In this document: piece by piece, positions 9,687 to 45,813 of the stretch
How positions within the stretch are numbered: the first letter of the stretch is position 1
Layout of the letters: every line of letters starts with the position of its first letter
NCBI GenBank assembly: GCA_050178385.1
Contig: JBFXGD010000006.1
Span: 1 to 48,216 of the forward strand
Direction of reading: 5' to 3'
Length of the DNA stretch: 48,216 nt
Source of the DNA: Calditrichaceae bacterium
GTDB taxonomy: Bacteria > Calditrichota > Calditrichia > Calditrichales > JBFXGD01
Made by a program: the position numbers and the translations under genes
Notes under the pieces: model-generated
What the model saw: only the letters and a program-made list of their open reading frames with translations
Databases searched by the model: none
Told to the model about the DNA's origin: nothing

Positions 9687-9793
9687 TAAATACAAGTTTC
9701 GATCACCAGGAGTTTGTTTTAATAAAGGCAATTAACCGTAGCAATAGATGTCTATGGGCTACCTCGTTTTATATACTACCATAAAAAGTAAAA

Positions 9794-11605: not shown

Positions 11606-12684
11606 TGTTTTATCTTACAGACAGATACCTGACACGTCAGTTTGCGATCAATCTATTTATAGCAATTGTGACCTGGATTATTATTTTTCTTGTTGTGGAT
11701 ATTATTGAGCATATCTCAAAATTTCTTGACCGCGGCGCGACACTCGGTCAGTTTACCTTATATTATTTATATTATACTCCATATATCATCAGTCTTACCT
11801 TACCTGTAGCCATGCTGCTTGCTACATTATTTTCACTCAGCACTTTTGCCCAGAACAACGAAATTGTCGCTCAGCTCTCTTCAGGGATCAGTCTGTACCG
11901 GATATTAAGTCCGTTGTTTATTCTTGCCTTTTTGATAAGTATAGCAGCCGGTTTTTTTAATGAAATTGTGGTTCCCGAAGCGAACCAGCGACGATACGAT
12001 ATTTACCGTTATGAGATTTCCAAGAATCCGAGAACATCCGGCACGTCGCGGTCAAATATTTATATTCAGGATTCCGCCAATCGAAAATTTGTAATCAAAT
12101 ATTTTAACAGTAAATCCAACGAAGCCAGCACTGTCAGCATTCAGACTTTTAAAGGCGCTGTTCTCGTCGAAAGACTGGATGCAAAAAAGATGACGTGGAA
12201 AGACAGTCACTGGGTGTTAAATGACGGAATAGTGCGCGACTTTTCGAAGGATCAGGAAACAATCTATACTTTCACGGATTCGACTCTCAACGAATCGAGG
12301 ATCACACCGGAAAATTTAATTGACATACAGAAAAAACCCGAAGAAATGAGTTTCGCTGAGCTTAATCGGTTTATCTCCGAGCTTAAGTCCATTGGCGCGG
12401 ATGTCAGAAAATGGCTTGTTGAAAGACATTTGAAAATAGCCATGCCGTTTACTAATTTTATTGTAGTATTGCTGGGGGCACCGCTCGCGTCGAGAAAAAG
12501 ACGCGGAGGCATTGGTTTAAATTTCGGTCTGAGTCTTCTGGTCAGCTTTATTTATTTTATTATCATACGGACCGGACAGGTATTTGGACATCAGGGTACT
12601 CTTGATCCATTCATCGGCGCCTGGCTGGGAAATTTAATTTTTGTATCATTGGGCCTGGTTTCATTGTTTTCAGTGCAAAAATAA
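11605..12684 (+). CDS. lptG: LPS export ABC transporter permease LptG
   Basis: TDRYLTRQF, LPVAMLLATL, NEIVAQLSSGIS, PEEMSFAEL and KIAMPFTN. ATG 11605 overlaps the lptF stop (TAATG). Confidence 0.9.
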   Translation: MFYLTDRYLTRQFAINLFIAIVTWIIIFLVVDIIEHISKFLDRGATLGQFTLYYLYYTPYIISLTLPVAMLLATLFSLSTFAQNNEIVAQLSSGISLYRILSPLFILAFLISIAAGFFNEIVVPEANQRRYDIYRYEISKNPRTSGTSRSNIYIQDSANRKFVIKYFNSKSNEASTVSIQTFKGAVLVERLDAKKMTWKDSHWVLNDGIVRDFSKDQETIYTFTDSTLNESRITPENLIDIQKKPEEMSFAELNRFISELKSIGADVRKWLVERHLKIAMPFTNFIVVLLGAPLASRKRRGGIGLNFGLSLLVSFIYFIIIRTGQVFGHQGTLDPFIGAWLGNLIFVSLGLVSLFSVQK

Positions 12685-17377: not shown

Positions 17378-17406
17378 TTGACAAATTAATTTTGCCTGTT
17401 TATATT
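17378..17406 (+). promoter_or_regulatory. Sigma70 promoter of the tetR-exporter operon
   Basis: TTGACA-N17-TATATT, close to consensus. Confidence 0.8.
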
Positions 17407-17419
17407 GAATCATGATTCA
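17406..17419. promoter_or_regulatory. Putative TetR operator (perfect 14-bp palindrome TGAATCATGATTCA)
   Basis: Overlaps the -10 element and predicted start site. Related copies lie at 17275-17288 and 18057-18070. Confidence 0.75.
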
Positions 17420-17437
17420 TTAATCAAAGGAAAAAAC

Positions 17438-18028
17438 ATGAGAACGCGTGAAGGAAACAAAGAAAACGACATTCTTGAAGCTGCCATACAGATTTTCGCT
17501 GAAGCCGGATATCATGGTTCAAAAATTTCTAAAATTGCAGAGGTCGCCGGAGTGGCAAACGGAAGCGTCTATCTTTATTTCCGGAACAAACAGGATATCC
17601 TGGTGAGGATCCTTGAAAAACTTTGGGAACAACTGGCAAATGAAATCCAGAAACTGGTCGATCGGACAGATTTAGATCCACTTGAAAAAATTGACGGCAT
17701 GGTGGATAAAGTTTTTGACACTTTTACTTCAAATCCCAATCTGGCCATCGTGGTCATTAATGAGCACAACCAGATGATACAAAGGGGCGTTGATGATTTC
17801 GCCAAACAGTATGAAAAGTTTCTCGATGCCTGTCGAAAAGTGTTTTCTGAAGGCGTTGATCACGCTTATATCAATCCCGATCTCGATGTCAAAGTGTTTT
17901 TGCATTTCGTTGTCGGGGGACTTCGTCATCTGATTAATTTATGGGCGGGCAATCCGGATATGATGCCATTGGAAAAAATGCGCGAGAATATAAAATATCT
18001 TATCCGTCACGGTGTGATAAAATGGTAA
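17438..18028 (+). CDS. TetR/AcrR family regulator, FadR(YsiA)-like
   Basis: HTH ILEAAIQIFAEAGYHGSKISKIAEVAGVANGSVYLYFRNKQDIL; ATG 17438 follows AAGGA. Confidence 0.93.
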   Translation: MRTREGNKENDILEAAIQIFAEAGYHGSKISKIAEVAGVANGSVYLYFRNKQDILVRILEKLWEQLANEIQKLVDRTDLDPLEKIDGMVDKVFDTFTSNPNLAIVVINEHNQMIQRGVDDFAKQYEKFLDACRKVFSEGVDHAYINPDLDVKVFLHFVVGGLRHLINLWAGNPDMMPLEKMRENIKYLIRHGVIKW

Positions 18029-18056
18029 TATCAGACTAATTTTTTTTAATATTTAA

Positions 18057-18070
18057 TGAACTTTGAGTCA
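18057..18070. promoter_or_regulatory. Second putative TetR operator, upstream of tolC
   Basis: TGAACTTTGAGTCATTAATCAA matches 18 of 22 nt of TGAATCATGATTCATTAATCAA at 17406 and sits inside the inverted repeat TTAATGA-N8-TCATTAA. Confidence 0.6.
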
Positions 18071-18092
18071 TTAATCAATTTTGGAGATCTTA

Positions 18093-19589
18093 ATGCGTTT
18101 TAAGACTGAATTTAGCATCATCGTTGGGCTGTTATTTCTCTTTGGCATATATCCTACTCAACTGGACGCGGGAACACTTTCACTAAGCGCCGCGATCGAT
18201 ATTGCTCTGGAAAACAACAAAAAAGTCCAACAATATAATGAGCGCTTTGAACAAAAACGCTATGCGGAAAAGGAAGCATGGGGTAATTTTTTCCCAACTG
18301 TAAAAATACAAGCGACTTATAACCATCTTAACGACCCGCTGCAAATTGACCTTGAGCCGATCCGCCAGGCAATGATCCAGATTCAATCCGGTAATCAGGT
18401 GGAATTTGCAAATGCCTATTCCCTTTTTCAGGGTAATCCGGCTTTAACAAATACTGAACGCAGTGCCTTGTATGACCAGTATTACGGGCAATTAGACAGC
18501 GCAATTCCGCCCTTTGTCGATACATTCAAAAATCAGGATTATCGAACTGCGTCTATTCAGGCGACACAACCCTTATTTGCCGGTGGAAAAATCATAGCGG
18601 CCAAACGTTATGCCACCGCCGAGTTAAACGCATCGAAAGAGGAACTGCGGCAGACACAAAACGGGGTCGTACAGGACGTTATTAATCAATATATGAATGT
18701 GCTTTTATTAAAAAACGTCGTTCAGACAAGAATAGAAGTCCTAAAAGGTATGACACAGCACCAGAAAAACGCTCAGCTTCTTTATGACGAAGGACTTATC
18801 GCGCGGTATGATTTGTTCCGGGCTAAAGTGGCTGTATCCGATGCTGAACGCGCTTTATTCGATGACAAAAACAATTTATCACTCTCGATGATTGCTCTTA
18901 AAAATACTTTGGGACTGGAAGATGATCTTGAATCCGCTGCCGTCTCCGACTCACTCTTGTACAGATTAATGGACAGAGATATTGACTCATTCATCAACCA
19001 GGCGAATCTGGATCAGCCAGTGCTTCAAATATTGAACTATAAAGGGGTCAGCGCTCAGCAGAACTACGCCGCGCAGCGGGCTGATTTCCTCCCCACCGTC
19101 GCCGGTTTTGCAAAATATGAAATGATCCCGGAAGATCTTTCAAGTCTGGAACCAAGATGGGTAGCCGGTATACAGTTAAATTATACGCTTTTTGAAGGAT
19201 TTAAAAAAAGTAACCGGCTGCAATCCGCGAAACACCTTAAAGCGGAAGTAGAATATCTTGAGCAGGATACAAAACGGCAGATTAATCTTTGGGTTGAAAA
19301 GTCATACAGAGATCTCCGCAACTCCGAGACCCGCTATATCAAACTTGAATCTGATATTGCCCTGGCCAAAGAGAATCTGAGACTAAACCAGAAAAGATTT
19401 GAAACGGGACTTGGGACATCCCTCGAAGTCATAGATGCGAATCTCTCCCTGCAAAAAAATCAGATTGAGCGCTTACTCTCGCTCCATAACTATTATCAAT
19501 CCATGTCATCATTATACACGGCAGCCGGGAATCCCATACAATTTCTTGAATTCTGGAACACCGAAGGGGTACAAAATGAAGCTCACTAA
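18093..19589 (+). CDS. TolC family outer-membrane efflux protein
   Basis: LSLSAAIDIALENN, TQPLFAGGKI, QRADFLPTV and RFETGLGTSLEVIDA; ATG 18093 follows GGAG. Confidence 0.92.
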   Translation: MRFKTEFSIIVGLLFLFGIYPTQLDAGTLSLSAAIDIALENNKKVQQYNERFEQKRYAEKEAWGNFFPTVKIQATYNHLNDPLQIDLEPIRQAMIQIQSGNQVEFANAYSLFQGNPALTNTERSALYDQYYGQLDSAIPPFVDTFKNQDYRTASIQATQPLFAGGKIIAAKRYATAELNASKEELRQTQNGVVQDVINQYMNVLLLKNVVQTRIEVLKGMTQHQKNAQLLYDEGLIARYDLFRAKVAVSDAERALFDDKNNLSLSMIALKNTLGLEDDLESAAVSDSLLYRLMDRDIDSFINQANLDQPVLQILNYKGVSAQQNYAAQRADFLPTVAGFAKYEMIPEDLSSLEPRWVAGIQLNYTLFEGFKKSNRLQSAKHLKAEVEYLEQDTKRQINLWVEKSYRDLRNSETRYIKLESDIALAKENLRLNQKRFETGLGTSLEVIDANLSLQKNQIERLLSLHNYYQSMSSLYTAAGNPIQFLEFWNTEGVQNEAH

Positions 19590-20568
19590 AAACAAACTAA
19601 TCCTGTCAATACCATTAATAATAACCTTGATTTCTGTTCTTGTTCTGAGCATTCAGGCGCTTTCAATTGACACGGTAATCATGACCGGTCTGGTGGAAAC
19701 AACAGAAATTGATATCGCATCTAAAATTCCGGGCCGCATTGAAAGTGTTTATGTAAGTGAGGGAGACGCTGTCACAAAAGGCCAACTGATCGCCAATTTG
19801 GAAAGCAAAGAAATTGATGCCAAAGTCGGGCAGGCCCGCGGTATGATGCAGGCTGCCGCCGCTAAACTGGAAATGGCCAGAAACGGAGCTCGTCCGGAGG
19901 AACGTGAGGCCGTTGAAAAAATGTACATGCAGGCGGTACATCAGTTTGAACTGGCTGAAAAAACATGGAGAAGAGTGGAAAGTGTTTACAAAGACAGTGT
20001 GATTTCTACCCAGGAGCGTGACCAGGTGGAATTTCAATTTAAAGCGGCAAAAGAACAGATGGATGCTGCCCGGGCCAAATTTGATATGGTCAAAAAAGGC
20101 GCCCGGTATGAAGAAATCGCGGCCGCCGAGGGACTATTTCTCCAGGCTCAAAGCGCGTATCAGGAAGCATTGGCTTATCAGGAAGAAACCAGGCTGGTTA
20201 GTCCCATTTCAGGAGAACTATCCGCCAGGATTACCGATCCGGGTGAAATTATCGCAGCCGGCTATCCTGTTTTTTCCGTGACCGATACTTCTGATGTCTG
20301 GGTGGTTCTGCAGATTCGGGAAGATATGATGAGTCTTATTATAAAAGATCTGCTTGTTAAGGGAGAAATTCCGGCTCTTGGGATTGATAATGCGGGCTTT
20401 AAGGTGAGCCATATCGCCACCATGGCGGACTTTGCTACCTGGCGAGCGACAAATCAGAAGGGCGATTTTGATCTTAAAACATTTGAAATTCATCTGCGCC
20501 CGGCTGAGAAGATATCCGGATTACGGGCGGGTATGACGGTCCGCCTTAACTTTATAGAAAATAATTGA
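19576..20568 (+). CDS. HlyD family periplasmic adaptor
   Basis: N-terminal TM, IASKIPGRIESVYVSEGDAVTKGQ, NGARPEE, SPISGE, FATWRAT and GLRAGMTV. Confidence 0.92.
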   Translation: MKLTKNKLILSIPLIITLISVLVLSIQALSIDTVIMTGLVETTEIDIASKIPGRIESVYVSEGDAVTKGQLIANLESKEIDAKVGQARGMMQAAAAKLEMARNGARPEEREAVEKMYMQAVHQFELAEKTWRRVESVYKDSVISTQERDQVEFQFKAAKEQMDAARAKFDMVKKGARYEEIAAAEGLFLQAQSAYQEALAYQEETRLVSPISGELSARITDPGEIIAAGYPVFSVTDTSDVWVVLQIREDMMSLIIKDLLVKGEIPALGIDNAGFKVSHIATMADFATWRATNQKGDFDLKTFEIHLRPAEKISGLRAGMTVRLNFIENN

Positions 20569-20576
20569 GACACGAA

Positions 20577-21770
20577 ATGTTGACTATCTACTCAAAAGCC
20601 ATTCTAAATGTCATGAAACGCGAAATCACAAGGATTGCAGAACGCAAGTCTTTGTATTCCTTGATGATTATACTCCCGCTGATCCTGTTTCTGCTTTTCG
20701 CGTTCATCTATAAAAACGGTAGTATAGAAAATCTTCCGGTAGCGGTGTTCGACGAAGACAATTCTGCCCTTTCCAGATTGGTTATTCAATCGGTTGAGTC
20801 AACTAAGTCGATGAAAATTGACCGGTATGTTCATTCCATTGATGAGATCCGTGACGCGATGCTGTCCGGGAAAATACAAGCGGGATTTTATATTCCGGAT
20901 GATTTTTCCGGTAAGATAAGAAGCGGTAAAGCCGCCCGTGTGGTTGTTTATAAAAACACCAACAATCTCATCATTGGAAATTTGATATATAAAGATGTCA
21001 TTACCATCACAAAAACAATTTCGGGGGGCGTACTGCTAAAAAAACTGCGCTCTGAGGGGATGCATGAAGACCAGGCAATGAATATTGTTAGCCCGATCCG
21101 GCTGGAAACACAGTCCTTGTTCAACCCGGCATACAACTACGAAAATTACCTTGTTCCCGGTCTGATGCCTGTAATGCTCCAGATGATCATTATGATATCC
21201 GGTGTGCTTATTATCAGCTCCGAATACACGCACCGCACAATGGATGACTTGTTTAAAACAGCAGACAACCTTGTTCTGGCCGTTTTTCTGGGAAAATCCA
21301 TTCCTCATCTGCTGATCTATACGGCCATATCTTTAAGTATGATCGGAATCATATTTCCGCTTTTCGGCATACCGTACTCAGGTTCTGCAGTCACCGGTCT
21401 CCTTTTTTTGATATATTTTATATCCGCCAACTTCTTTTTGGCCATGTTTTTATCCACGCTTATCCATGACCAGCTGCTGGCTACGGAAATTGCCGTATTC
21501 TTTAACACACCGGCATTTATTTTCAGCGGGTACACTTTTCCTCTTTCAAGTATGCCCGGCGTTCACAGTGTCTATGGCCAGATGATGCCGTTTACACATT
21601 TTCTGAGCGGCTTTCTGAAAATCTATCAGATGAACGCGCCCATCAGCTATTTGTGGCCTGAAATCAAAATACTTTCGTTTTTTGTTTGGGGATTCATCGC
21701 ATTAAGCATCATCGCCATCAAATACAGAAAAAGCCATTTGCCGGCACTGACCGGAGGGGTGACGGTATGA
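20577..21770 (+). CDS. ABC-2 type transporter permease (YbhS/YhhJ-like)
   Basis: LPVAVFDEDNSALSR, FNPAYNYENYLVPG and FIFSGYTFP. Start may be TTG 20565 or ATG 20577. Confidence 0.9.
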   Translation: MLTIYSKAILNVMKREITRIAERKSLYSLMIILPLILFLLFAFIYKNGSIENLPVAVFDEDNSALSRLVIQSVESTKSMKIDRYVHSIDEIRDAMLSGKIQAGFYIPDDFSGKIRSGKAARVVVYKNTNNLIIGNLIYKDVITITKTISGGVLLKKLRSEGMHEDQAMNIVSPIRLETQSLFNPAYNYENYLVPGLMPVMLQMIIMISGVLIISSEYTHRTMDDLFKTADNLVLAVFLGKSIPHLLIYTAISLSMIGIIFPLFGIPYSGSAVTGLLFLIYFISANFFLAMFLSTLIHDQLLATEIAVFFNTPAFIFSGYTFPLSSMPGVHSVYGQMMPFTHFLSGFLKIYQMNAPISYLWPEIKILSFFVWGFIALSIIAIKYRKSHLPALTGGVTV

Positions 21771-23002
21771 CTAATCTGAATTTAAAAATCACAGGCTTTT
21801 ACCGGGTGTTTCTGCGCGAGATTCAGTTGATTAAAAGTGATATCAATATCATCATGGTCATTCTGCTGGCGCCTTTATTTTATGCATTTTTCTATCCTTC
21901 TATCTATGTGCATAAAACTGAACATGATGTGCCAATAGTTGTTGTTGATCATGACAAATCCGCGCTTTCAGCTGAACTGATCCGTTATCTCGATGTCCAT
22001 CAGCTTACAAAAGTGACTGAAACGGTGACCGATCTGGAACAGGCCAGCGACCGGATATACAAGATGGCCGCCGAAGGAGTTATTTACATCCCCGACGGCT
22101 TCGAAAACAATCTCAAAAGCGGCGACGGAACTGATCTGAAAGTTTATATCAACACTGACCGTTTTTTGATCTCGAACGACATCAACAAAGCGGTAAACGA
22201 AGTGATCGGTACAATGGGCGCCGGAATTCGTCTAAGCTACTTCCGGACAAACGGCAACAGCTTTGAACAGGCCATCGAATTGATGGAGCCGGTACATGGT
22301 GATATCAGACCGATGTTTAATCCATCTGAAAGCTACGGTGATTTTCTAATTCCCGGGCTCATGGTTCTGATTATACAGCAAACCTTATTGATCGGACTTT
22401 CTGAGAGCATGGCCAAAGAACGTGAGACACATACTCTCGGTACTCTTTTTGAGACCGCAAACCGGAGTATCTGGGCAACAATCGCCGGTAAAGCTTCATT
22501 TTATATTCTGCTGTTCGGATCATATAGTTTTTTCATGTTTACCGTACTTTTCAGGGTTTTTAAGCTGAATTTCGGAGGCAGTAAAAGCGCGCTCTTTGTC
22601 CTTACTTTTCTCTTTCTGCTCTCGGTCATTTTTCTGAGTCTTTTTGTTTCATCATTCTTTAAGCGAAAAATACTGTCAATGCAGTTTTTCGTATTTACAT
22701 CCTATCCGGTTTTTCTTTTGTCCGGTTACAGCTGGCCCCTGCAATCCATGCCGGCAATGTTGAGGACATTCGCTTATATGTTACCGGGAACGCCCTACCT
22801 GAGCGCTTTTGTAAGAATTACTCAAATGGACGCAGGCTGGAACCATATTTTACCCGAACTCCTGCTTCTTGCGGTACTTACTCTATCTGGTCTTCTTCTC
22901 ACGCGGTTCAGAATGAAGCAGCTGATAAATCAGGAACTGGATGAGAATCTCCACTCTCCGGTCTCTGGAGTAATGTCATTGTTCAGATTGAAGAGGGGTT
23001 AA
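21767..23002 (+). CDS. ABC-2 type transporter permease (YbhR/YhhJ-like)
   Basis: PIVVVDHDKSALS, FNPSESYGDFLIPG and LLSGYSWP; ATGA overlap with the upstream stop. Confidence 0.9.
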   Translation: MTNLNLKITGFYRVFLREIQLIKSDINIIMVILLAPLFYAFFYPSIYVHKTEHDVPIVVVDHDKSALSAELIRYLDVHQLTKVTETVTDLEQASDRIYKMAAEGVIYIPDGFENNLKSGDGTDLKVYINTDRFLISNDINKAVNEVIGTMGAGIRLSYFRTNGNSFEQAIELMEPVHGDIRPMFNPSESYGDFLIPGLMVLIIQQTLLIGLSESMAKERETHTLGTLFETANRSIWATIAGKASFYILLFGSYSFFMFTVLFRVFKLNFGGSKSALFVLTFLFLLSVIFLSLFVSSFFKRKILSMQFFVFTSYPVFLLSGYSWPLQSMPAMLRTFAYMLPGTPYLSAFVRITQMDAGWNHILPELLLLAVLTLSGLLLTRFRMKQLINQELDENLHSPVSGVMSLFRLKRG

Positions 23003-25882: not shown

Positions 25883-28800
25883 CTATATTTTTAGAGCATC
25901 ATCATCTGTTTTTGGTAAAATCGTCCGCAAATCTTTTACAAGACCGGAATATTTTTTTTCTACCTTAAATCCAAACCGGTAGAAATATTCAGGCCGCAGA
26001 AAAGCAGTTGTCACCAATTCAACATACTCATCCCGCAGGCGGTTAAAGAATTCGTTCATGATGCCTTCACTGATGCCTTTCCGGCGGTAGCGATTCGAAA
26101 CTACAATTTTTTCCATATATACTGTTTTTTCATCTATATAGCTGTAAAAAAGTCCGCCGATAATGTGTCCGCGTTCAGAAACGGATACCAGAAAACGATG
26201 CTCAGGCCGGAAATTCACCGGAAGACTTGCTTCGAGGAACAACTGATGCAGCCGCGATATTTCTTTTGGTGAAACCGGCCGCCTGACCTGAAAGGGTACT
26301 CCGTCATAATCATCCATACGCACTACCACATCCGCCATGGAGCCGCCGTCACTGAGTGTACTCACGAGAACCGCTGAATCTGTGGGTCTGAGATGCGGGT
26401 AACTCAGACGCGTAAGGAAAAAAGCTTCTTTTTCATTTAAGGTATATTCTTTCTGCACACTGGACAACAGGGAGAGCGTCTCTTCTGTAGAGATATGTTT
26501 TTTATGCTGCTTTCGCACGATATCCATCATTTCTTCCTTCAACTGTTCAGATGAATCGGCAAAAACTGTTTCCAGGAAAAACCGGGTCCGGGTTTCCGGG
26601 TATTGACGGTCGAGTTCCTGGAGCTGATATGTATCCGAGAGTTCATTGAGTGTCCTTGCCTGCGCGGTAAACGCGGCATCCCTGCTCAGGTTGAACCAGC
26701 GGTGAAATCGTTTTATCGCGAAATACAATTTTTTGGGAACAAACCCGTTCTTTCTGGTATGGTTTATAAACTCATTCAGTGAATCGGCGAGGTCGTTTGT
26801 GGGACATGGTATTTCTGAATTTTTTACTTCGCGGTAAATTTTTTTCAGCAGTTTAAGACCATTCTCTTCACCCAGCGCGTCCAGTATACCTGAAAAGACA
26901 TAAAAACAAAATGATTCTCTTTTTATAAAAGGAAAATGCTCCTCGGAAGTTTTAATAAACTGATCCGAAAAATCATTCAGCAGCTCAACGGCATTTGTCG
27001 TAGCTGCGCGCTCTGCTATGGATATAAATCTCACCCCTGTTTGATAATCATGGGATGGTACTATGATATTATTAATAGATTTATCCGTTAATGACATTTT
27101 ATAGCCGGTTCTTCTCCAAAAACTTATATGGGCGGCCATCGCGGTCCAGACAAAGAACGGCCATAAATAGTATAACCTTCTGTTCATCTCATCATTCTTC
27201 TTACGGATTCCTCTCTGCATTATTTTTCCGACGGAATCTCCCGAAGCAAATTCCTCGCTCCAAAGATCAAATTCTCTCCAGTATCCTCCAAAATCATCCA
27301 CAAGACTCAATCCGTCTTTTGTCGCCCCGGCATGGATCAACCAGTTCATTTCAGAGAGAATTTGCTCGGTGGGATAATTTTTATTTAAGTTCAAAGTGAT
27401 ATCGTATCCGCCCTGATATCTTGTTTGAACTGAAACACGGTAAACAGATTTCGCGTTTGAACTGCTCAACTGACTTATCCAGATTCCACCCGCCGGTATA
27501 TCATACAAACGTATCATGTTTCCGTTTGAGAAGAGAAAAATCGCTTCTCTCAGAATGGATGTATTCGTAATGGCATCTAACTGACGCTGTCTGTCAGAGT
27601 CGGGGATGTCCTGTTCAAAAATGATCACATCAGACCAGCGGTATTCTTCACCGGTTTCCACATCAACCGCCACAGTCTGATTGCTTCCCAGCCAGTCTCT
27701 AAAACCGTCAAGAAGTTTTTTCCTTGCTTCCGAGGCTAATTCGGCAAGCTGTGGCCAGTCATCACGAAGCTGATACTTAACAATGAGCTGCCGCACACGT
27801 TTGTAGCGCGTAGGATGAAAAATACCGTAGGTTGCCAACAGTTCAAACAAAGAAGGAAGAGCGGTTTTTTGCAGATTCACTTTTTTTGACAATCCGGTCA
27901 GTTCGCTTTTGATAGCCGCGTAAATCGCATTTAGATTCTCATCGCCTCTGCTTGCTTTCACTATGGATTCTATAAGCTCATTGTCGATAATTTCCGGATC
28001 ATCACGAATAAATATTTTTAGAAACCATTCGAAGCTCTTGCCTTTAAAAATCGGCAGACCAAGTTTGAATAATTGTCTGCGGATCCCTGCATGAATGCTA
28101 AAATTCGGCCGTGAAATTAAATCGAGCGCCAGGCTGTAAAACGGAAGATTTTCATCTTCAAAAATCATGGCAAGATATTTTACTCCGTAAACGGCCTCTT
28201 CTAAATCCCGGGACCGTAAATGAATCGCGGCAAGATTTAGCCCCATCAGTGATTTTTCTCCACCGGACAACACCTTGCCCATAAGATCCATTAAGCGGCC
28301 GTTCAGTTCAATCGGCCCGGTCGTCGAATAATATTGAACATGTTCATGCGATCCATCCAGGCGGTACCATTGAAATATGGCATCTCCCGCGAATTCAATG
28401 AGTTTTGTATTCCCCAGCCAATAAAGAGGATTGGCGAGAAATATCTGAAAATCAATATAATTCCGTTCAATTTTATAATTAAAATCTCCGATCCGAAGTA
28501 TGTCCGGATGTCCGTCAATCTGTTTTATAGTCAGCACCTGATCATATTTCGGTATGGTGAGGCCGTCGGCGGTAGTTTTGATATCACCTTTGAGACAGCC
28601 TTTCTCTCTCAGGAACCAGTTCGGGATGCGTATTTCGGTCTCTCCCCACAATAAAGATGTATAATTTTTAGTGTACATCAAATTGATGATTTCATTAAAA
28701 TTATTTTCGATCACGCGGCGCTTATAAGTGCCTTTTGGCGTTAGTTCCCCGGCTTCTGCCGTAAATGGCCGGTCAGTGATCCTGAAATCGACAATACGTT

Positions 28801-30751
28801 CATAGGGAGCGAGAAATTTATTCACAGTGACAACAACGGATGAAAAGTACGCCTGTTTTTCAGCTTCGTTCATGCTTTTTAAAGCTGTGACTACTTTCTC
28901 CTCATCGGGATATATGAGAACGGTATTATACTGCCGGTGATCGCCCACCAAAAAGACCTGTTTGATAAATTCAAAATCCCGGAAGTAGTTTTCAATTTTC
29001 TGCGGCGCGATCGTTTCGCCTTTGATGTTTTTATAAATTTCTTTTTTACGGTCAATTATCTCATAAAATTTATTCTCATCCTGTTTCATCACGTCACCCG
29101 TTGGAAACCAGCCGTCAATGAAGGCATCCTGACCGGATTTTAATCCATAATATCCCATCATCACATAAGCGCCCTTGATCAGGAGTTCTCCGTCTTCGCC
29201 AAGTTTCACATCAATTCCTGGAAGCGGCCGGCCAAGGGAGTTTGGAATATATTGTCCCGGTGGGGTCATGGTGATCCCTCCTGTGGCCTCGGTCATACCA
29301 AAACCGCTCATGATTTCAACTCCGTATTGCTGAAAGAACTGGAATACATCCGGTTCCAGATACCCTGCCGCTGAAAGTCCCCAGGCCAGCTTTCCGCCGG
29401 TTGCTTTTTTCACTGCTCTTTTAATAATCTTTTCATCATCAAATTCAATATCCGTTTTTTGAGAAATATATTCATAAAGCTGATACCATTTTTTGGGAAT
29501 GCTGATAAATACGGTGGGTTTTAGCCGTTCCATATTATCAAGCATTGTCTCCAGCGCGGGATTCTCCATAAAACCGTATTTCGCTCCCCAAAAAATGGAC
29601 CCAAGCATCTCGAGATATCTTCCGAATGTGTGGAATAGAGGCAAATAGGCCAGAAATCGATCCTCATGTCCTATTTTCGGCAATGCCATCGCGCGGCAAA
29701 ATCGTTTATAAACAAGATTTATGTTTGAAAACATTATGCCTTTAGGGTCACCTGTAGTGCCTGAAGTGTACATGATGGTCGCCAGTTCATCTATCTTTGT
29801 GTTTTTTTGCAGAGTTAAATAACTTTTTTCAGGAAAACTGACACCCTGCGCCACCATTTCCTGAAATGTCATCACCCAGTCTTCTAGGCTGCTGCCTTCC
29901 ATGAGAACAACATTTTTAAGATGCTTAAGATTTTTTCTGACCGATTTTACTTTTGCCAGCTGTTTGTCATTCCCTACAAAAATGATGGAGGCTTCCGTCT
30001 GATTGAGAATAAATTCCACATGCTGTTCTACCGAATTGGCCGGTATCATAATGTTTACGATCCCGGTTGTCAGGCAGGCCAGATCAAGAAGAGCCATATT
30101 AAGGCTGTTTTCCATCAGAAATGCTACTTTTCCGGGTTTATCACCATCCTGAAGCGCCAGTTTTGCCGCGCCAAACGCATATCCTTTGACAAGCTCATCA
30201 ATCTGATTCCATGAATAATCCGTCTCAGTAGCGCCATGGAACACCTTAAAAAGAATTTTTTTATTGTATTCCTTCACACGCTGCCTGAACATCGCGGCCA
30301 CATTAAAATTACTGATTAGAACAAGTTTATGAATTAATATTTCCCATTTTTTCTGTTCATAAATCTTGATTAAAAATTCAGACTGCCGAAAAACATCGAG
30401 ATAACTGTGAATCAATTTACAGGCTGCTGTTTGCCGGTCATGTTCTCTTTCCGAAACAGCACTTATCAGATAATCACCAAAACGGTAATAGATATCCGGG
30501 TCCAGCTTTTGCGCCAATAGCGTGATCATCTCGTTGAGTCCGGCTGATTCAAAAATTTCGTTCCAGGTATGCATGAGCTCGGGATAATGATTAAAGAGAT
30601 CCGCTTCCACTACCTGATTAACCGATTCATTTATAGATTTGGTAAAACCGCGCTTATTCTCAACTGACAAAGCTTCAACACCGGCCTGTACTGTTTCATT
30701 GATAAAATTAGCGTGGCTCATTATTTCCGCTTTTTTTTCTCTTGTAGTCAT
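25883..30751 (-). CDS. Multidomain protein: long-chain acyl-CoA synthetase-like AMP-binding domain + helical region + putative pseudokinase fold + C-terminal GNAT
   Basis: IMYTSGTTGDPKG, YLPLFHTF, GFGMTE, WFPTGD and IDRKKE (ANL family); VYMEKIVVSNRYRRKGIS and YFYRFGF (GNAT motifs); uninterrupted 1622-aa frame. Confidence 0.88.
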   Translation of the reverse strand: MTTREKKAEIMSHANFINETVQAGVEALSVENKRGFTKSINESVNQVVEADLFNHYPELMHTWNEIFESAGLNEMITLLAQKLDPDIYYRFGDYLISAVSEREHDRQTAACKLIHSYLDVFRQSEFLIKIYEQKKWEILIHKLVLISNFNVAAMFRQRVKEYNKKILFKVFHGATETDYSWNQIDELVKGYAFGAAKLALQDGDKPGKVAFLMENSLNMALLDLACLTTGIVNIMIPANSVEQHVEFILNQTEASIIFVGNDKQLAKVKSVRKNLKHLKNVVLMEGSSLEDWVMTFQEMVAQGVSFPEKSYLTLQKNTKIDELATIMYTSGTTGDPKGIMFSNINLVYKRFCRAMALPKIGHEDRFLAYLPLFHTFGRYLEMLGSIFWGAKYGFMENPALETMLDNMERLKPTVFISIPKKWYQLYEYISQKTDIEFDDEKIIKRAVKKATGGKLAWGLSAAGYLEPDVFQFFQQYGVEIMSGFGMTEATGGITMTPPGQYIPNSLGRPLPGIDVKLGEDGELLIKGAYVMMGYYGLKSGQDAFIDGWFPTGDVMKQDENKFYEIIDRKKEIYKNIKGETIAPQKIENYFRDFEFIKQVFLVGDHRQYNTVLIYPDEEKVVTALKSMNEAEKQAYFSSVVVTVNKFLAPYERIVDFRITDRPFTAEAGELTPKGTYKRRVIENNFNEIINLMYTKNYTSLLWGETEIRIPNWFLREKGCLKGDIKTTADGLTIPKYDQVLTIKQIDGHPDILRIGDFNYKIERNYIDFQIFLANPLYWLGNTKLIEFAGDAIFQWYRLDGSHEHVQYYSTTGPIELNGRLMDLMGKVLSGGEKSLMGLNLAAIHLRSRDLEEAVYGVKYLAMIFEDENLPFYSLALDLISRPNFSIHAGIRRQLFKLGLPIFKGKSFEWFLKIFIRDDPEIIDNELIESIVKASRGDENLNAIYAAIKSELTGLSKKVNLQKTALPSLFELLATYGIFHPTRYKRVRQLIVKYQLRDDWPQLAELASEARKKLLDGFRDWLGSNQTVAVDVETGEEYRWSDVIIFEQDIPDSDRQRQLDAITNTSILREAIFLFSNGNMIRLYDIPAGGIWISQLSSSNAKSVYRVSVQTRYQGGYDITLNLNKNYPTEQILSEMNWLIHAGATKDGLSLVDDFGGYWREFDLWSEEFASGDSVGKIMQRGIRKKNDEMNRRLYYLWPFFVWTAMAAHISFWRRTGYKMSLTDKSINNIIVPSHDYQTGVRFISIAERAATTNAVELLNDFSDQFIKTSEEHFPFIKRESFCFYVFSGILDALGEENGLKLLKKIYREVKNSEIPCPTNDLADSLNEFINHTRKNGFVPKKLYFAIKRFHRWFNLSRDAAFTAQARTLNELSDTYQLQELDRQYPETRTRFFLETVFADSSEQLKEEMMDIVRKQHKKHISTEETLSLLSSVQKEYTLNEKEAFFLTRLSYPHLRPTDSAVLVSTLSDGGSMADVVVRMDDYDGVPFQVRRPVSPKEISRLHQLFLEASLPVNFRPEHRFLVSVSERGHIIGGLFYSYIDEKTVYMEKIVVSNRYRRKGISEGIMNEFFNRLRDEYVELVTTAFLRPEYFYRFGFKVEKKYSGLVKDLRTILPKTDDDALKI

Positions 30752-30834: not shown

Positions 30835-30871
30835 AAAAAAAAACGGGATTGAAATAATTCAACCCCGTTTT
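30835..30871 (-). terminator. Intrinsic terminator after the DUF4097 gene
   Basis: Minus strand AAACGGGGTTGAA-TTAT-TTCAATCCCGTTT followed by a T run (one G-U pair). Confidence 0.8.
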
Positions 30872-30893
30872 CCGGTGTTATTTGGTTTGGTAG

Positions 30894-39203: not shown

Positions 39204-40493
39204 TTACGATTCTTTTCTTTCAATTTCTCTGATTTTAAAATATATCGCGACAACCAGCAAGGTGATTACAGCGGTCGCGAATCCCAATCCCATTCTTCTT
39301 GTTTTACTTTCCTTTATCTCTGAATCCGCTAGAATAATGGCATCCCGGGATTTCTTAATTCCCTCTCCTGTTTTCAAACCTATACGGCCCGGATCAAATG
39401 TATGGACCAATGTTCTGGCTTCGATGAGATTCTGATGCGCTTCCTGAAGAAGGAAAGATATATCCACATCATCCATACCAATTTTTTGAACTTCTCGCAT
39501 TTTTGACTCAGCCGAATCATAAGCGCTTGTTGTATGGGTGAGGTGTTCATGAATTTTTTGAGCTGATATGTACCCAGCATCTCCCTTTGTATGGCAATTA
39601 ACGCAAACAGAACCGGCTCCGACACCCGCCATGGCATCCGACGTTTTTTCGATTTTATGATTTCCGTGGCATTCCTCACAGGCATGAAGCTGCAGATTTT
39701 CAAACTCCGCGGCCATTTTTGTTGAAGAAAAGTACTGCATGTTATTTACATGACATAGCCCGCAAACATGGCTGATTGAGGAAATACCCGGCGGCATGGC
39801 GCCATGATTACCATGACAGTCATTACATGCCGGCGCCCCTGTATCCTGATTTTCCAAAAGCGCTTTACCATGAACGCTGCCTGCAAATTCATCATACTGA
39901 TTTACCGGAATTTTATATTCCTTCATGTAATTTTCATCACCATGGCATTTTTTACAGGTCCCCGGAACATTCAGCGCGTAAACCCAGGAACGGGAATCAT
40001 CAACCGCAAAAATGGAATGAGCGCTGTGACAGCTTACACAATCAGCAACCTTTTTGTCACCCTTCTTTAGCTTTTGACCATGGACGCTTGTATAATATTG
40101 CGCTTCCTGTTCCGTGGGACTCTGCGGTTTATATTTTCTCATAAATTTTATTTCTGAATGACATTTTCCGCAAAAACCCGGAATGTCTCTTTTGTCAGGG
40201 ACTCCCCGATATCCGGCTTTTGTTGACATCGCCTCGTCCATATCATCTTTTGACGCATCCCCACCGTGACATCCGGAACAGGATAATCCCGATTGAAGGT
40301 GAATATCTTTCAAATTATAATCTTCCGGCAGGACTTCTGATTCAATATGACATTTAATGCACTGATCATCACTTATCCTCAGCGAAACATCCTGAGTGTA
40401 TAAATCCTGACTCATCAGAACTGTTAAAAATATCAGAAAACATAGACAATTAAGGACTCGTTTATTAAAAAAATGCATCGTCGCACTCCTCAT
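39204..40493 (-). CDS. Nonaheme cytochrome c with C-terminal membrane anchor (c subunit of the Rieske/cytochrome b complex)
   Basis: Nine CxxCH motifs (CIKCH, CSGCH, CGKCH, CVSCH, CKKCH, CNDCH, CGLCH, CEECH, CVNCH); signal peptide; C-terminal TM; ATGA overlap with cytochrome b. Confidence 0.92.
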
Positions 40494-41572
40494 ACTAAAT
40501 AACCGTATATGGTCAGGGAGATAATATAGATGATCGCCGTAACACCGATTGTCATGATTATTCTGCGGTGCTTTTTCGAATCAGATGAGAATCCAAAAAA
40601 TGGCAGCAATAACCAGATCAATGCTATGATGGCAAAAAACATGACTCCAACGATTTCCCCCTCAATAAACCAGATATGTCCCGGCAAAACCTTTAAGGTT
40701 TGAAACATAAACATAAAATACCACTCCGGTCGTATCCCTTCCGGCGCGGACGCGAAAGCATCAGCCTTCTGACCAAGTTCCCACGGGAAAAAAACAGCAA
40801 GAAATAGAAGAATATCCAGAACAACTAACCATAATAAGGCGTCTCTCAGAAAAAAATTCGGAAAGAAAGCGATGGTTTTTTTATTAGAATCAGGCAGATT
40901 CCGGTAATAATCCGGTTCATGCATACCCTGTCTTTGTACAAATAAAAGATGAATACCAAGAAAAATGGTAAAAATCGCCGGTATCAAAGCAACATGAAAA
41001 CCATAGAAGCGCAGAAGGGTCGCCCCGGTTACGTCCTCTCCGCCGCGTAAAACGATTTTTGCGGCATTGCCGATAACCGGCATGGCTCCGACGATATCTG
41101 TTCCAACTTTTGTCGCGAAAAATGCCAGTTCATTCCATGGCAGCAGATATCCGCTGAACCCAAATCCCATCACCAGAATCAGCATTATAAAACCCGTCAC
41201 CCATGTCAACTCGCGGGGCTTTTGGAAAGCGCCAGTAAAAAAGGTACTGAACATGTGAATAAATACAAAAAGAACCATCAGATTTGCCGACCAGCTGTGT
41301 ATCGATCTCACCAGCCAGCCGAAATTAACCTTTATCATTAAAAATCTCACACTCTCAAACGCGCTGTCAACGCCCGGCTGATAATATAGCAGCAGCAATA
41401 TCCCTGAAAATACCTGCACAATAAACAAAAAGAGTGATACGCCTCCCATATAGTACCAGATACTATGACGGTGAACTGGCACCCGTTTGTGTTTCATATA
41501 ATCCACAAGCGGACTCAGAGTGAATCGCTCATCCAGCCATTTAAATACACTTTTTGTATTTTTATTTCCCAT
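40490..41572 (-). CDS. petB: Cytochrome b of a Rieske/cytochrome b complex (b6-like domain fused to subunit IV)
   Basis: RSIHSWSAN...[25 protein letters not shown]...IH and IRPEWY. Confidence 0.93.
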
Positions 41573-41573
41573 A

Positions 41574-42011
41574 TCAGCCTGCCTTCGGAGTTGAAATAAC
41601 GATTTCATCCTTGACCAGATTAACGGTCAGTTCGTCCAGCGGCCTTGGAGGCGGCCCGGAAATATTTCTTCCGCGCAAATCATAATGCCCGTTATGACAG
41701 GCGCACCAGATATGTTTTAAATCAGTGCGGTACTGAACAATACAATCAAGATGGGTACATGTTGCGGCGAACGCCCGGAAATCTCCTGACTCAAGACGTA
41801 TAAGAATGACCGGCTTCCTGCCGAATTTGATGATCTTGCTGCTGTTCTTCGGAAATTCAGATATCATTCCCGCCTTTACAGAGTTGACATTCGCCTCCGA
41901 CACCTCCGGCGGTTTGAGATATGAAGTGATCGGGTAAAATATACTGCCCAGCCATGCCAGAAAACTTCCCCCAATCAGCACATTTAAAAACTTTCGTCGG
42001 TCAGTAGCCAT
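41574..42011 (-). CDS. Rieske [2Fe-2S] subunit of a Rieske/cytochrome b complex
   Basis: Tat-like DRRKFL plus [16 protein letters not shown] and GPPPRPL. Confidence 0.94.
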
Positions 42012-44472: not shown

Positions 44473-45804
44473 ATGCGTTTTGTAGTATTTCTGGTGGTAT
44501 TTTTGATGACCGGGATCAGCCTGAGCCAGACGGCTCAGAATGATCAATCAAAATATGCGGGAAAATGTATGACCTGCCACAAGGAAAAAACACCCGGTCT
44601 CTACAAACAGTGGTATGAATCGGCTCACGCGCAGCACAACGTCACCTGTATCAGCTGCCACAGTGCCGAAAAAAGCGATGCGGATGCATTCATGCACGAA
44701 GGTGTCCGGATTGCAACGTTAGTGACACCTAAAGACTGCGGCCGTTGCCACGCCAAGGAAGCAAAGGAAGTTCAAAGCTCATATCACGCAACCGCCGGAG
44801 AGATTCTGGATTCTAACGACGCCTATCTCGCCCATGTTGCCGGAGGCGCACCGGTCGCCATTCAGGGATGTGAGAACTGTCATGGTGGAAAAGTAAAAAT
44901 AGACCCGGATTCCCCAAATAAGTTATCAAAGAAAAGCTGGCCTAATTCAGGTATAGGACGAATCAATCCCGATGGTTCAAAAGGATCCTGTAATGCCTGC
45001 CATACACGGCATTCTTTTTCAAAAGCGCAAGCCCGTCAACCGGAAGCCTGTTCTAAATGTCATTTAGGACCGGATCATCCGCAAAAAGAAGTATACGAAG
45101 AATCAAAACACGGAAATGCCTACTATACAAATATTCATAAAATGAATCTTGATTCTGACAAATGGGTTGTCGGAGAAGATTATTACGAAGCTCCCACCTG
45201 CGCGACCTGCCATATGACCGCCGCGCCCGGGATGAAATCCACACATGATGTGGGTGAACGCCTGAGCTGGACCCTGCGTCCGGCAGTCTCCGTCCATAAG
45301 GATAACTGGCAGCAAAAACGCAAGAATATGGGCAAGGTTTGTACATCCTGCCATGGAAACGCCTTTGTGGACGGTCATTTCTATCAATATGATGGTGTTG
45401 TAAGACTTTATAATGAAAAATTTGCCATCCCGGCGACTGAAATCATGAATCTTGTGAGAAAGAATAAACTCCTGGAAAATCCGGCAAGTTTTAGCAACAA
45501 CATTGAATGGACTTACTGGGAAATCTGGCATCATGAAGGCCGCCGCGCCCGTCACGGAGCTGCCATGATGGGTCCCGATTATACATGGTGGCACGGTATG
45601 TATGAAGTGGCCAAACATTTCTACTTCAAACTCATTCCCGAAGCCAGAGAGTTTAAAAACAAAGAGGTTGATGAGTACATCAATAATATGCTTCAAAACG
45701 ATCCAATGCATAAATGGATGCTGACCAATACCGATGAACTGAAAAAAGGCATCAAGTCCGGTAAAATTCAGGAAGTTTATGAAAAATTCTTCGAACAAAA
45801 ATAG
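44473..45804 (+). CDS. Octaheme cytochrome c of the hydroxylamine oxidoreductase (HAO) family, probably reductive type
   Basis: Signal peptide; eight CxxCH motifs; CHTRHSFS, CHLGPDHPQ, SKHG, APTCATCHM and GPDYTWWHG. Confidence 0.9.
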   Translation: MRFVVFLVVFLMTGISLSQTAQNDQSKYAGKCMTCHKEKTPGLYKQWYESAHAQHNVTCISCHSAEKSDADAFMHEGVRIATLVTPKDCGRCHAKEAKEVQSSYHATAGEILDSNDAYLAHVAGGAPVAIQGCENCHGGKVKIDPDSPNKLSKKSWPNSGIGRINPDGSKGSCNACHTRHSFSKAQARQPEACSKCHLGPDHPQKEVYEESKHGNAYYTNIHKMNLDSDKWVVGEDYYEAPTCATCHMTAAPGMKSTHDVGERLSWTLRPAVSVHKDNWQQKRKNMGKVCTSCHGNAFVDGHFYQYDGVVRLYNEKFAIPATEIMNLVRKNKLLENPASFSNNIEWTYWEIWHHEGRRARHGAAMMGPDYTWWHGMYEVAKHFYFKLIPEAREFKNKEVDEYINNMLQNDPMHKWMLTNTDELKKGIKSGKIQEVYEKFFEQK

Positions 45805-45813
45805 AGACGCAAA

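Follow-up and report, generated by a model that had tools for sequence, protein, structure and literature searches.

A conserved 1622-residue protein that joins an AMP-forming ligase domain to a GNAT domain through a kinase-shaped scaffold: a candidate two-enzyme acyltransferase

A 2024 review (PMC11254643) sorts bacterial GNAT acetyltransferases into types. In types I and II the GNAT is accompanied by a domain that is inactive and related by homology to nucleoside diphosphate (NDP)-forming acyl-coenzyme A (acyl-CoA) synthetases, in type III by small effector-binding domains, and in types IV and V by no such domain; an AMP-forming ligase is found in no type of that classification. Two further papers (PMC4053389, PMC11619455) describe the regulation of AMP-forming ligases by Pat-type GNATs, which acylate the lysine of ligase motif A10. 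Here we describe a gene in which the two enzyme types are joined in one chain. It lies on the minus strand of a stretch of 48,216 nucleotides from a Calditrichaceae bacterium (GenBank assembly GCA_050178385.1, contig JBFXGD010000006.1, positions 1 to 48,216), which was analyzed as a whole and is called the window below, and it encodes a protein of 1622 amino acids with an ANL-type ligase domain toward the N terminus, a GNAT domain at the C terminus, and a protein-kinase-like (PKL) fold in the long stretch between them (Table 1). An initial annotation, made from the sequence alone, had read the gene as a single open reading frame (ORF) with this order of domains and knew of no characterized protein with the architecture. 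The ORF does run from an ATG at the upper end of 25883..30751 to its stop codon, with a homolog of full length and 93% identity, and the passages returned by full-text literature searching contained no description of any ANL-GNAT or ANL-kinase-like-GNAT protein, just as the types described in PMC11254643 include none with a fused ANL domain. The family is apparently uncharacterized. The domain assignments of the initial annotation hold, and its overall interpretation is supported in part.

Judged by their sequences, both catalytic domains look competent. The ACSL-type adenylation domain, first placed at about residues 150-690, was resolved by Pfam into an AMP-binding domain at 156-535 (207 bits against a gathering threshold of 29.9) and a C-terminal subdomain at 576-695 (44.4 bits against a cut-off of 20.8). 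The core motifs follow in order, with A3 (TSGTTGDPKG) at 329, A5 (GFGMTE) at 483, A7 (TGD) at 551, A8 (DRKK) at 567, and an A10-type TPKGTYKR at 671-678, the lysine of which is K677. All of them, including this lysine, are invariant among 20 close homologs, and strict patterns recover them in 66-79 of the 80 full-length members of a wide alignment; on these Pfam matches and motifs (A3, A5, A7, A8, and the A10 lysine), the domain is a member of the ANL superfamily. Its nearest families are medium- and long-chain fatty acyl-CoA synthetases, and the nearest NCBIfam models over residues 149-695 are the long-chain fatty-acid-CoA ligases FadD11 (E 4e-58) and PRK06187 (E 1.2e-56). The N-terminal extension that precedes the domain contains L118 and R122, both invariant in the homolog alignments. 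Carrier, reductase, and PlsC families, which had been said to be missing, were found nowhere in the 1622-residue protein by Pfam at E<=0.1.

The GNAT domain lies where the motif RYRRKGIS had placed it (about 1490-1610): the Pfam family PF00583 (Acetyltransf_1) matches residues 1513-1595 with 31.2 bits against a cut-off of 20.7, and RYRRKG begins at 1554. We modeled residues 696-1622 (927 amino acids) with AlphaFold2 from an alignment of 88 sequences with identities down to ~20%, and in this model the GNAT extends over ~1459-1612. The CoA loop (the motif A pyrophosphate loop), R1556-R-K-G1559-I-S1561, fits the pattern R/Q-x-x-G-x-G/A, and it is kept across the alignment, with G1559 in 80/88 sequences, R1556 in 58/88, and Ser, Gly, or Ala at position 1561 in 85/88. 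Near the start of the domain, D1481, R1490, and E1497 are kept in 85-87/88. Position 1547 is acidic (Glu or Asp) in 83/88 and stands in the alignment two residues downstream of the catalytic glutamate of Gcn5, which we take to be E122 of tGCN5, on the same strand. A profile of the domain found Tetrahymena GCN5 (1qst) as its best match among sequences of the Protein Data Bank (PDB), with E 5.5e-6. When the 927-residue model was compared with the PDB by VIA-align, the best 50 rows were all GNATs, so that this comparison was uninformative on the other domains; Escherichia coli YhbS (4rs2) came first, with a Z score of 15.8 and a root mean square deviation (rmsd) of 2.4 Å for 135 residues over 1475-1612, followed by Ard1 (Z 14.7), RimI (14.2), the SAGA HAT module (13.9), and yeast Gcn5 (13.7), with Naa80, NatD, and the GNAT of Streptomyces lividans Pat (4u5y, 13.3) also in the range 13.3-14.7. 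Pfam, predicted fold, and CoA loop together make the domain a member of the GNAT superfamily.

Between the two enzymes lie ~760 residues that Pfam leaves blank, with no family between residues 696 and 1500 at E 0.1. The AlphaFold2 model nevertheless predicts that the C-terminal 927 residues fold as one confident body (mean predicted local distance difference test score [pLDDT] of 93.4, predicted template modeling score [pTM] of 0.84), and this body includes a beta-rich domain (696-815) and a helical bundle (1334-1455) that were absent from the initial annotation. The helical stretch that it did propose, at ~820-1030 and as possibly HEAT-like, is matched by an all-helical domain (818-1021). P710 and W712, in the motif RIPNWFLREKG of the beta-rich domain, are kept in >=90% of sequences family-wide, and W1352, in the helical bundle, is kept in 88/88. 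A profile of residues 696-1021 gave no match below E 0.09 among PDB sequences, and an ESM Atlas search with residues 696-1455 gave best scores of 0.82-0.87, which we treat as leads only. Foldseek ranked Vps34 and other PI3K chains, comprising helical and kinase domains, first for the 927-residue model (E 1.2e-5, 600-660 columns), but with template modeling (TM) scores of 0.17-0.30 and an rmsd of ~20 Å. The predicted helical domain and kinase fold may thus give a weak hint of a Vps34/PI3K arrangement, which is also the one weak sign of a HEAT-like character; given the low TM scores and the absence of PI3K from the matches listed for the domain-only model described below, we kept a PI3K-like reading of this part only as a weak lead. 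The most hydrophobic 19-residue window of the whole protein (mean of 1.7, residues 219-237) falls within the ANL core and suggests no membrane segment, and the protein is predicted to be soluble, with nothing resembling a transmembrane segment.

The kinase-like segment, first proposed at ~1090-1330, is recognizable in the models by structure alone and by no sequence method. A domain-only model of residues 1022-1455 had a pLDDT of 94.8 and a pTM of 0.91, and when it was compared by VIA-align with 48,161 PDB representatives, the best 50 rows were all PKL folds (Z 9.4-11.9), most of them covering model residues 26-311, that is, residues 1047-1332 of the protein. The best match was homoserine kinase II (2ppq; Z 11.9, rmsd 3.6 Å, 209 residues aligned), followed by Bud32 (4ww5, 11.6), amicoumacin kinase (6sum, 11.6), PsiK (11.5), and NahK (11.3), with APH enzymes, choline kinases, and Rio1 also among the 50. 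Foldseek counted 500 matches for the same model, all at E<=1e-3, with kinases among the matches listed, including JAK, PsiK, Rio, and Bud32 at E 3e-5 to 2e-4. By sequence, a 49-member profile of the domain found 0 matches among PDB sequences at E<=10, and the Pfam search of the 49 members at E<=10 gave no kinase family, only scattered matches at chance level. An APH-family protein of the same genome was aligned with the domain by hhalign at a probability of 0.2. Contig C68 of that genome encodes a 476-residue protein (L085:793-2223) that has an APH-type kinase domain with intact catalytic-loop motifs and a C-terminal extension of ~150 amino acids. AceK, which is presumably a PKL-fold regulator of isocitrate dehydrogenase, was absent among the matches listed by VIA-align and Foldseek for the domain, and no test aimed at AceK was made.

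To locate the canonical kinase positions, we followed the succession of strands and helices along the model (Table 1). Because the positions so assigned to the beta3 lysine, the catalytic aspartate, and the DFG aspartate are not conserved, the domain is unlikely to act as a conventional kinase. Other positions are kept almost throughout, with R1105 in 79/88, G1155 in 86/88, W1212 in 80/88, and D1235, in the turn between beta7 and beta8, in 81/88. The domain is thus under strong constraint, yet conventional kinase activity is unlikely.

Table 1. Features of the 1622-residue protein and its gene, with positions in the window. Kinase positions follow the strand and helix order of the model; fractions refer to the 88-sequence alignment.
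Feature	Residues or position in protein	Position in window	Strand	Basis or remark
Whole ORF	1-1622	25883..30751	-	ATG start, 1622 aa + stop, 187.3 kDa, isoelectric point 6.3
N-terminal extension	1-155	30287..30751	-	No Pfam family; conserved patch ~117-147
ANL N-terminal domain	156-535	29147..30286	-	Pfam PF00501 AMP-binding, E 5e-61
ANL C-terminal subdomain	576-695	28667..29026	-	PF23562 AMP-binding_C_3, E 2.7e-11
Beta-rich domain	696-815	28307..28666	-	AlphaFold2 model; conserved RIPNWFLREKG motif
All-helical domain	818-1021	27689..28300	-	AlphaFold2 model
PKL fold	1022-1333	26753..27688	-	AlphaFold2 domain model, VIA-align, Foldseek
Beta3 Lys position	None on beta3 (1115-1123); K1124 follows			Lys in 16/88
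AlphaC Glu position	E1134			Kept in 45/88
Catalytic-loop Asp position	D1223, after beta6 (1219-1221)			Asp in 30/88
Catalytic-loop Asn position	N1228			Kept in 73/88
DFG Asp position	S1244			Ser in 74/88
Helical bundle	1334-1455	26387..26752	-	AlphaFold2 models; between PKL fold and GNAT
GNAT acyltransferase domain	1456-1622	25886..26386	-	Pfam PF00583, VIA-align, profile vs PDB
Terminator-like hairpin		30838..30873	-	16-bp stem + T run, between DUF4097 gene and giant gene; pattern match only

The initial annotation had named separate homologous genes as the finding that would count against it; we found the fused state to be the norm. A word-indexed search with residues 700-1500, in which 8000 candidates were scored, found at least 432 clusters at E<=1e-3, and among the best 120 of these, 113 were >=1500 amino acids long, almost all with the same AMP-binding and GNAT families; the closest, at 93% identity, was likewise 1622 amino acids long. 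Passing the same 801 residues over 1.84 billion representative proteins with HMMER gave 335 representative clusters at E<=1e-3 (137 at <=1e-30), and the best 150 of these comprised 61 matches of >=1400 amino acids, with fragments making up most of the remainder. The middle region stood at the same internal position, between ANL and GNAT parts, in all 61/61 of the long matches, and among the best 150 of the 335, all of them in register with the query, no relative of the middle region was found outside the fusion family. Complete members measure ~1470-1710 amino acids, and P0131, the cluster of P0214, and P0244 are examples annotated as AMP-binding or GNAT proteins that have the fusion architecture. 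The fused architecture is the normal state of the family. Three short forms, P0138 (923 amino acids, on a 1.68-Mb contig), P0165, and P0263, begin with a methionine at the junction of the ANL and beta-rich domains, so natural split versions with the ligase as a separate polypeptide may exist, although they would be rare.

Contigs taken at one genome per species included at least 550 stretches that encode a relative. The nearest among the matches listed (L001, 93% identity) comes from a Calditrichaceae metagenome-assembled genome (MAG), and in a sample of the window's phylum the gene was present in 41 of 81 genomes, almost always as a single copy, being common in the window's order and absent from the searched genomes of several other families. 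By record label, the carriers are Ignavibacteria, Melioribacteraceae, and Calditrichota, including the cultured Caldithrix abyssi, and further MAGs labeled Bacteroidetes, Myxococcota, and Pseudomonadota. A FastTree phylogeny of 133 full-length proteins, which gives local support only and contains many rows of odd composition, separated the loci from genomes and those from metagenomes into two deep clades, the first of which includes the window. Members of the second clade (~1530 amino acids, ~20-25% identical in the middle region) also occur in Ignavibacteriaceae MAGs (L086-L165; the P0214 cluster).

In part of each of these two clades, the fusion gene is accompanied by genes of entry into the tricarboxylic acid (TCA) cycle. 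For the window's clade we compared 77 genome loci, and citrate synthase lay upstream on the same strand in 39/77, at position -1 in 32; these loci are labeled Ignavibacteria, Melioribacteraceae, or Bacteroidetes, with one Actinomycetota. For the second clade, searched with an alignment of ~1530-residue members, 80 metagenome loci were compared, 76 of them with a usable gene: aconitase stood divergently at -1 in 16/76, isocitrate dehydrogenase was present in 16/76 (15 at +1 on the same strand), and citrate synthase was at -2 in 9/76. The neighbors differ in kind between the clades. The Ignavibacteria-type neighbor is a citrate (Si)-synthase of PRK09569 (737 bits, above the NCBIfam cut-off), as is the window genome's own citrate synthase, which is 68-75% identical to it, whereas the second-clade enzyme belongs to a different NCBIfam subfamily, PRK14032 (672 bits, above its cut-off), and is accompanied by a mitochondrial-type aconitase and an NADP-dependent Icd, both above their NCBIfam cut-offs. 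We had entertained a methylcitrate cycle, with PrpC as the neighbor and a PrpE-like ANL domain, and rejected it because the neighbors score in NCBIfam as true TCA enzymes. In the tree, the citrate-synthase label occupies 29 rows within a 50-row subclade of the window's clade, and one 16-row subclade of the other consists wholly of rows with the aconitase/Icd/citrate-synthase label; with 36 short-flank rows masked, the TCA-neighbor label requires at least 9 changes. To us, this pattern indicates that the family became associated with TCA-entry genes on no fewer than two separate occasions, with losses after each; the trait is not universal and is missing from the window's own lineage.

Two further observations were made. 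In 16-25 Ignavibacteria-type loci (L011 12749-18115 and relatives), a conserved run of genes follows on the 3' side of the giant gene and encodes an esterase-like protein, a PAP2-like protein, a small ORF product, and a 1136-residue protein without a Pfam family. Contig C7 of genome G000 (~28272-28967; L082/L083) contains a second, short citrate-synthase-like frame of 276 amino acids with two Pfam Citrate_synt matches, which may represent either a truncated gene or a protein of the citryl-CoA lyase type.

From the observed folds, intact motifs, conserved fusion, and gene neighborhoods we infer a single-chain, two-enzyme machine that would make an acyl-CoA and then deliver its acyl moiety to an amine, with lysines of TCA-entry proteins as the likeliest targets; we put the probability of this reading at roughly 0.4. 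In it, the ANL domain would adenylate a carboxylic acid with ATP and then form the acyl-CoA with CoA, and the GCN5-like GNAT would take up this acyl-CoA and move the acyl group onto the amine. The ~760 residues between the enzymes may act as a rigid scaffold, holding the two active sites in place and probably offering a binding site for the acceptor or for an effector that contains adenine. The likeliest acceptors, and the best supported of the candidates considered, if weakly, would be lysines of citrate synthase, aconitase, and isocitrate dehydrogenase. According to PMC11254643, lysine acetylation alters the activity of E. coli citrate synthase, and the reference list of the same review includes a study of this modification in E. 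coli isocitrate dehydrogenase. The protein would in this way link the supply of carboxylate, ATP, and CoA to TCA flux, in the manner of a Pat-type acetyltransferase that makes its own acyl donor. The initial annotation had offered two sequence-based possibilities, acyl transfer to an amine and a lipid-sensing protein acyltransferase, and the intact motifs of the ANL and GNAT domains would fit either. A more specific version, in which the fusion would represent a new architectural type, a self-supplying protein acyltransferase that senses a free carboxylic or fatty acid by turning it into acyl-CoA, acylates lysines of citrate synthase, aconitase, or isocitrate dehydrogenase, and uses a repurposed pseudokinase as a substrate or adenine-nucleotide hub, we consider unlikely.

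Several results weigh against the two-enzyme reading or narrow it. The ANL part does not reach the NCBIfam equivalog cut-offs (FadD11, 197.2 bits against 950; PRK06187, 192.1 against 476). TCA genes were found near the fusion gene in 0/14 of the Calditrichota-type (non-Ignavibacteria) rows with enough flank, and there is none near it in the window, the genome's own citrate synthase being on another contig. Since the adjacency is limited to one subclade in each deep clade, no more than two events may be needed to account for it. The assignment of the kinase positions did not use residue-level superposition. Enzymes that act on small molecules, N-acetylglutamate synthase (Z 13.8) and AAC(2')-Ia (Z 13.5), are also found among the fold matches of the GNAT, and the top matches of the kinase-like domain are mostly small-molecule kinases (2ppq, amicoumacin kinase, PsiK, NahK, APH enzymes, and choline kinases), so an acceptor that is itself a small molecule is possible.

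This last point leads to the alternative that survives best, a small-molecule N-acyltransferase in which the GNAT would join the ANL-activated acid to a small amine held by the kinase-shaped domain. The amine would be an amino acid, a polyamine, or an amino sugar, the product an N-acyl metabolite or lipid, and the TCA neighbors would reflect the supply of 2-oxoglutarate and glutamate and not regulation. Citrate synthase, aconitase, and Icd, which jointly yield 2-oxoglutarate, do lie next to the gene; N-acetylglutamate synthases and aminoglycoside acetyltransferases are among the GNAT fold matches; and AAC(6')-Ie-APH(2'')-Ia offers a precedent for a GNAT fused to a small-molecule PKL enzyme. 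However, in the profile search the GNAT has its closest solved relative in GCN5, which acetylates proteins, many of its top fold matches are protein acetyltransferases too, and the protein kinase relatives Bud32 and Rio tie with the small-molecule kinases, with Z scores within 1. Moreover, no transporter, lipid, or amino acid biosynthesis gene recurs beside the fusion gene in the compared loci. We regard this explanation as possible but doubtful.

It is also conceivable that the protein is a self-regulating acyl-CoA synthetase with acyl-CoA as its sole product, in which the GNAT would acylate K677 of the ANL domain as an off-switch, in the way that Pat or AcuA act on acetyl-CoA synthetase, and the scaffold would sense a metabolite. 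The control of AMP-forming ligases by Pat-type GNATs through acylation of the A10 lysine suggests such a mechanism, all 20 close homologs keep the A10-type lysine, and the fold match 4u5y (Z 13.3) is the S. lividans Pat GNAT bound to the C-terminal domain of Acs. Against this, ~760 conserved residues with positions invariant family-wide would be a costly device for a simple off-switch, and no counterpart of the glycine in PX4GK, the acylation site of Pat substrates, is present around K677 (P-K-G-T-Y-K). A self-regulating synthetase would, in addition, leave the recurring TCA neighbors unexplained, and we consider it improbable. More improbable still is catalysis by the kinase-shaped domain itself, as an atypical phosphotransferase or AMPylase working through noncanonical residues such as N1228 and D1235, which would make the protein a three-enzyme signaling device. 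PKL enzymes with rearranged active sites do exist, SelO being one, and N1228, D1235, R1105, and G1155 are strongly conserved (73-86/88). The catalytic aspartate, however, is present in only 30/88, there is no beta3 lysine (K1124, 16/88), serine occupies the DFG position in 74/88, and no kinase family was found by sequence (Pfam, 0/49 members; PDB, 0 at E<=10). Finally, we rejected a false joining of separate genes by assembly or annotation, for which only the few short forms with a methionine at the ANL/beta junction speak, because hundreds of independent assemblies, some of them complete chromosomes, encode the fusion at 1590-1625 amino acids, and because the ORF is free of stops and 93% identical to L001 over residues 1-1622.

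The two-enzyme reading would have several consequences. Were the protein a self-supplying acyltransferase, it would constitute an undescribed control point of TCA entry in phyla that have been little studied, among them Ignavibacteriota and Calditrichota. Coupling of its ANL and GNAT sites would make it the first known case of an acyltransferase that produces its own donor and would extend the scheme of bacterial GNAT acetyltransferases by a new type. Here a 187-kDa enzyme is kept in hundreds of species over several phyla without a described function, and the sites that would make and use acyl-CoA stand on a single rigid chain, with a kinase fold that no sequence method recognizes as the connection between them. 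Its placement beside TCA genes in two deep clades, with two types of citrate synthase, makes posttranslational control of TCA entry a testable hypothesis, and the homolog in cultured C. abyssi and the confident models make the family directly approachable.

In the window's own genome the fusion gene is present in one copy. It is the fourth of five minus-strand genes running from 35102 down to 23698, which encode, in order, an Omp85/DUF5686 protein, a product without a Pfam family, a DUF4097 protein, the giant protein, and an Amidase_3 protein. The terminator-like hairpin upstream of the giant gene (Table 1) suggests that this gene may have its own promoter, and a search for the same kind of pattern on the minus strand found none in the 73 bp preceding the amidase gene. 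These neighbors (DUF4097, Omp85-like, and amidase) are common only to close kin, namely, L001 and, in part, L004.

Elsewhere in the window, a 2066-residue ORF with an SprA_N domain, a component of type IX secretion or gliding, occupies 3531-9731 (minus strand) and is followed on the opposite strand by two LptF/LptG permease genes (10127-12684). Genes for a TetR regulator, an outer-membrane efflux protein, an HlyD-type adaptor, and two ABC-2 permeases are codirectional at 17405-23002 (plus strand); the ORFs at 18081-19589 and 19435-20568 share 155 bases, and one start has probably been called too early. In the regions 39204-42011 (minus strand) and 44473-47316 (plus strand), genes for a Rieske protein, cytochrome b, and a multiheme c-type cytochrome stand consecutively, as for a bc-type complex with a multiheme partner, and close by are two more multiheme cytochrome genes, one of them NapC/NirT-like.

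Compared with known systems, the parts of the fusion protein have familiar relatives in unfamiliar surroundings. A bilobal fold is common to its kinase-like domain and to Bud32, Rio1/Rio2, and the APH/choline-kinase group (Z 10-11.9, rmsd 3.6-4.8 Å for 195-240 aligned residues), but at 8-15% identity and with the domain embedded between helical domains. To our knowledge, AAC(6')-Ie-APH(2'')-Ia is the only characterized fusion of a GNAT with a PKL fold, and the kinase-like domain matches the fold of its APH(2'') part (4ork, Z 9.5, row 45). In that protein of ~480 amino acids the GNAT comes first, which is the reverse order, each domain is independently active on a drug, and there is no ANL domain. 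GCN5/PCAF is a profile relative of the fusion GNAT, which has its acidic residue on the same strand as the catalytic glutamate of Gcn5, whereas the fusion protein is bacterial and has no bromodomain or other chromatin modules; YhbS and Ard1 match the fold at least as well. The ACSL, FadD15, and FadD11 synthetases have the ANL core motifs in common with residues 149-695, to which the fusion protein adds extensions of 150 amino acids at the N terminus and 930 at the C terminus, and it scores far below the cut-offs of these families.

Pat, PatZ/YfiQ, and S. lividans PatA likewise consist of a large domain related to acyl-CoA synthetases and a GNAT of ~160-200 amino acids on one chain, and in both cases the arrangement suggests a link between acyl-CoA metabolism and protein acylation. 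The large domain of the fusion protein is, in contrast, an AMP-forming ANL domain with all of its catalytic motifs and not an inactive one of the NDP-forming type, a family of which Pfam found no match in the fusion protein at E<=0.1, and in the fusion protein ~760 residues, including a kinase-like fold, separate the ligase from the GNAT. On this comparison, the fusion protein is not a member of the Pat family, although it would work in the way that Pat-type acetyltransferases do.

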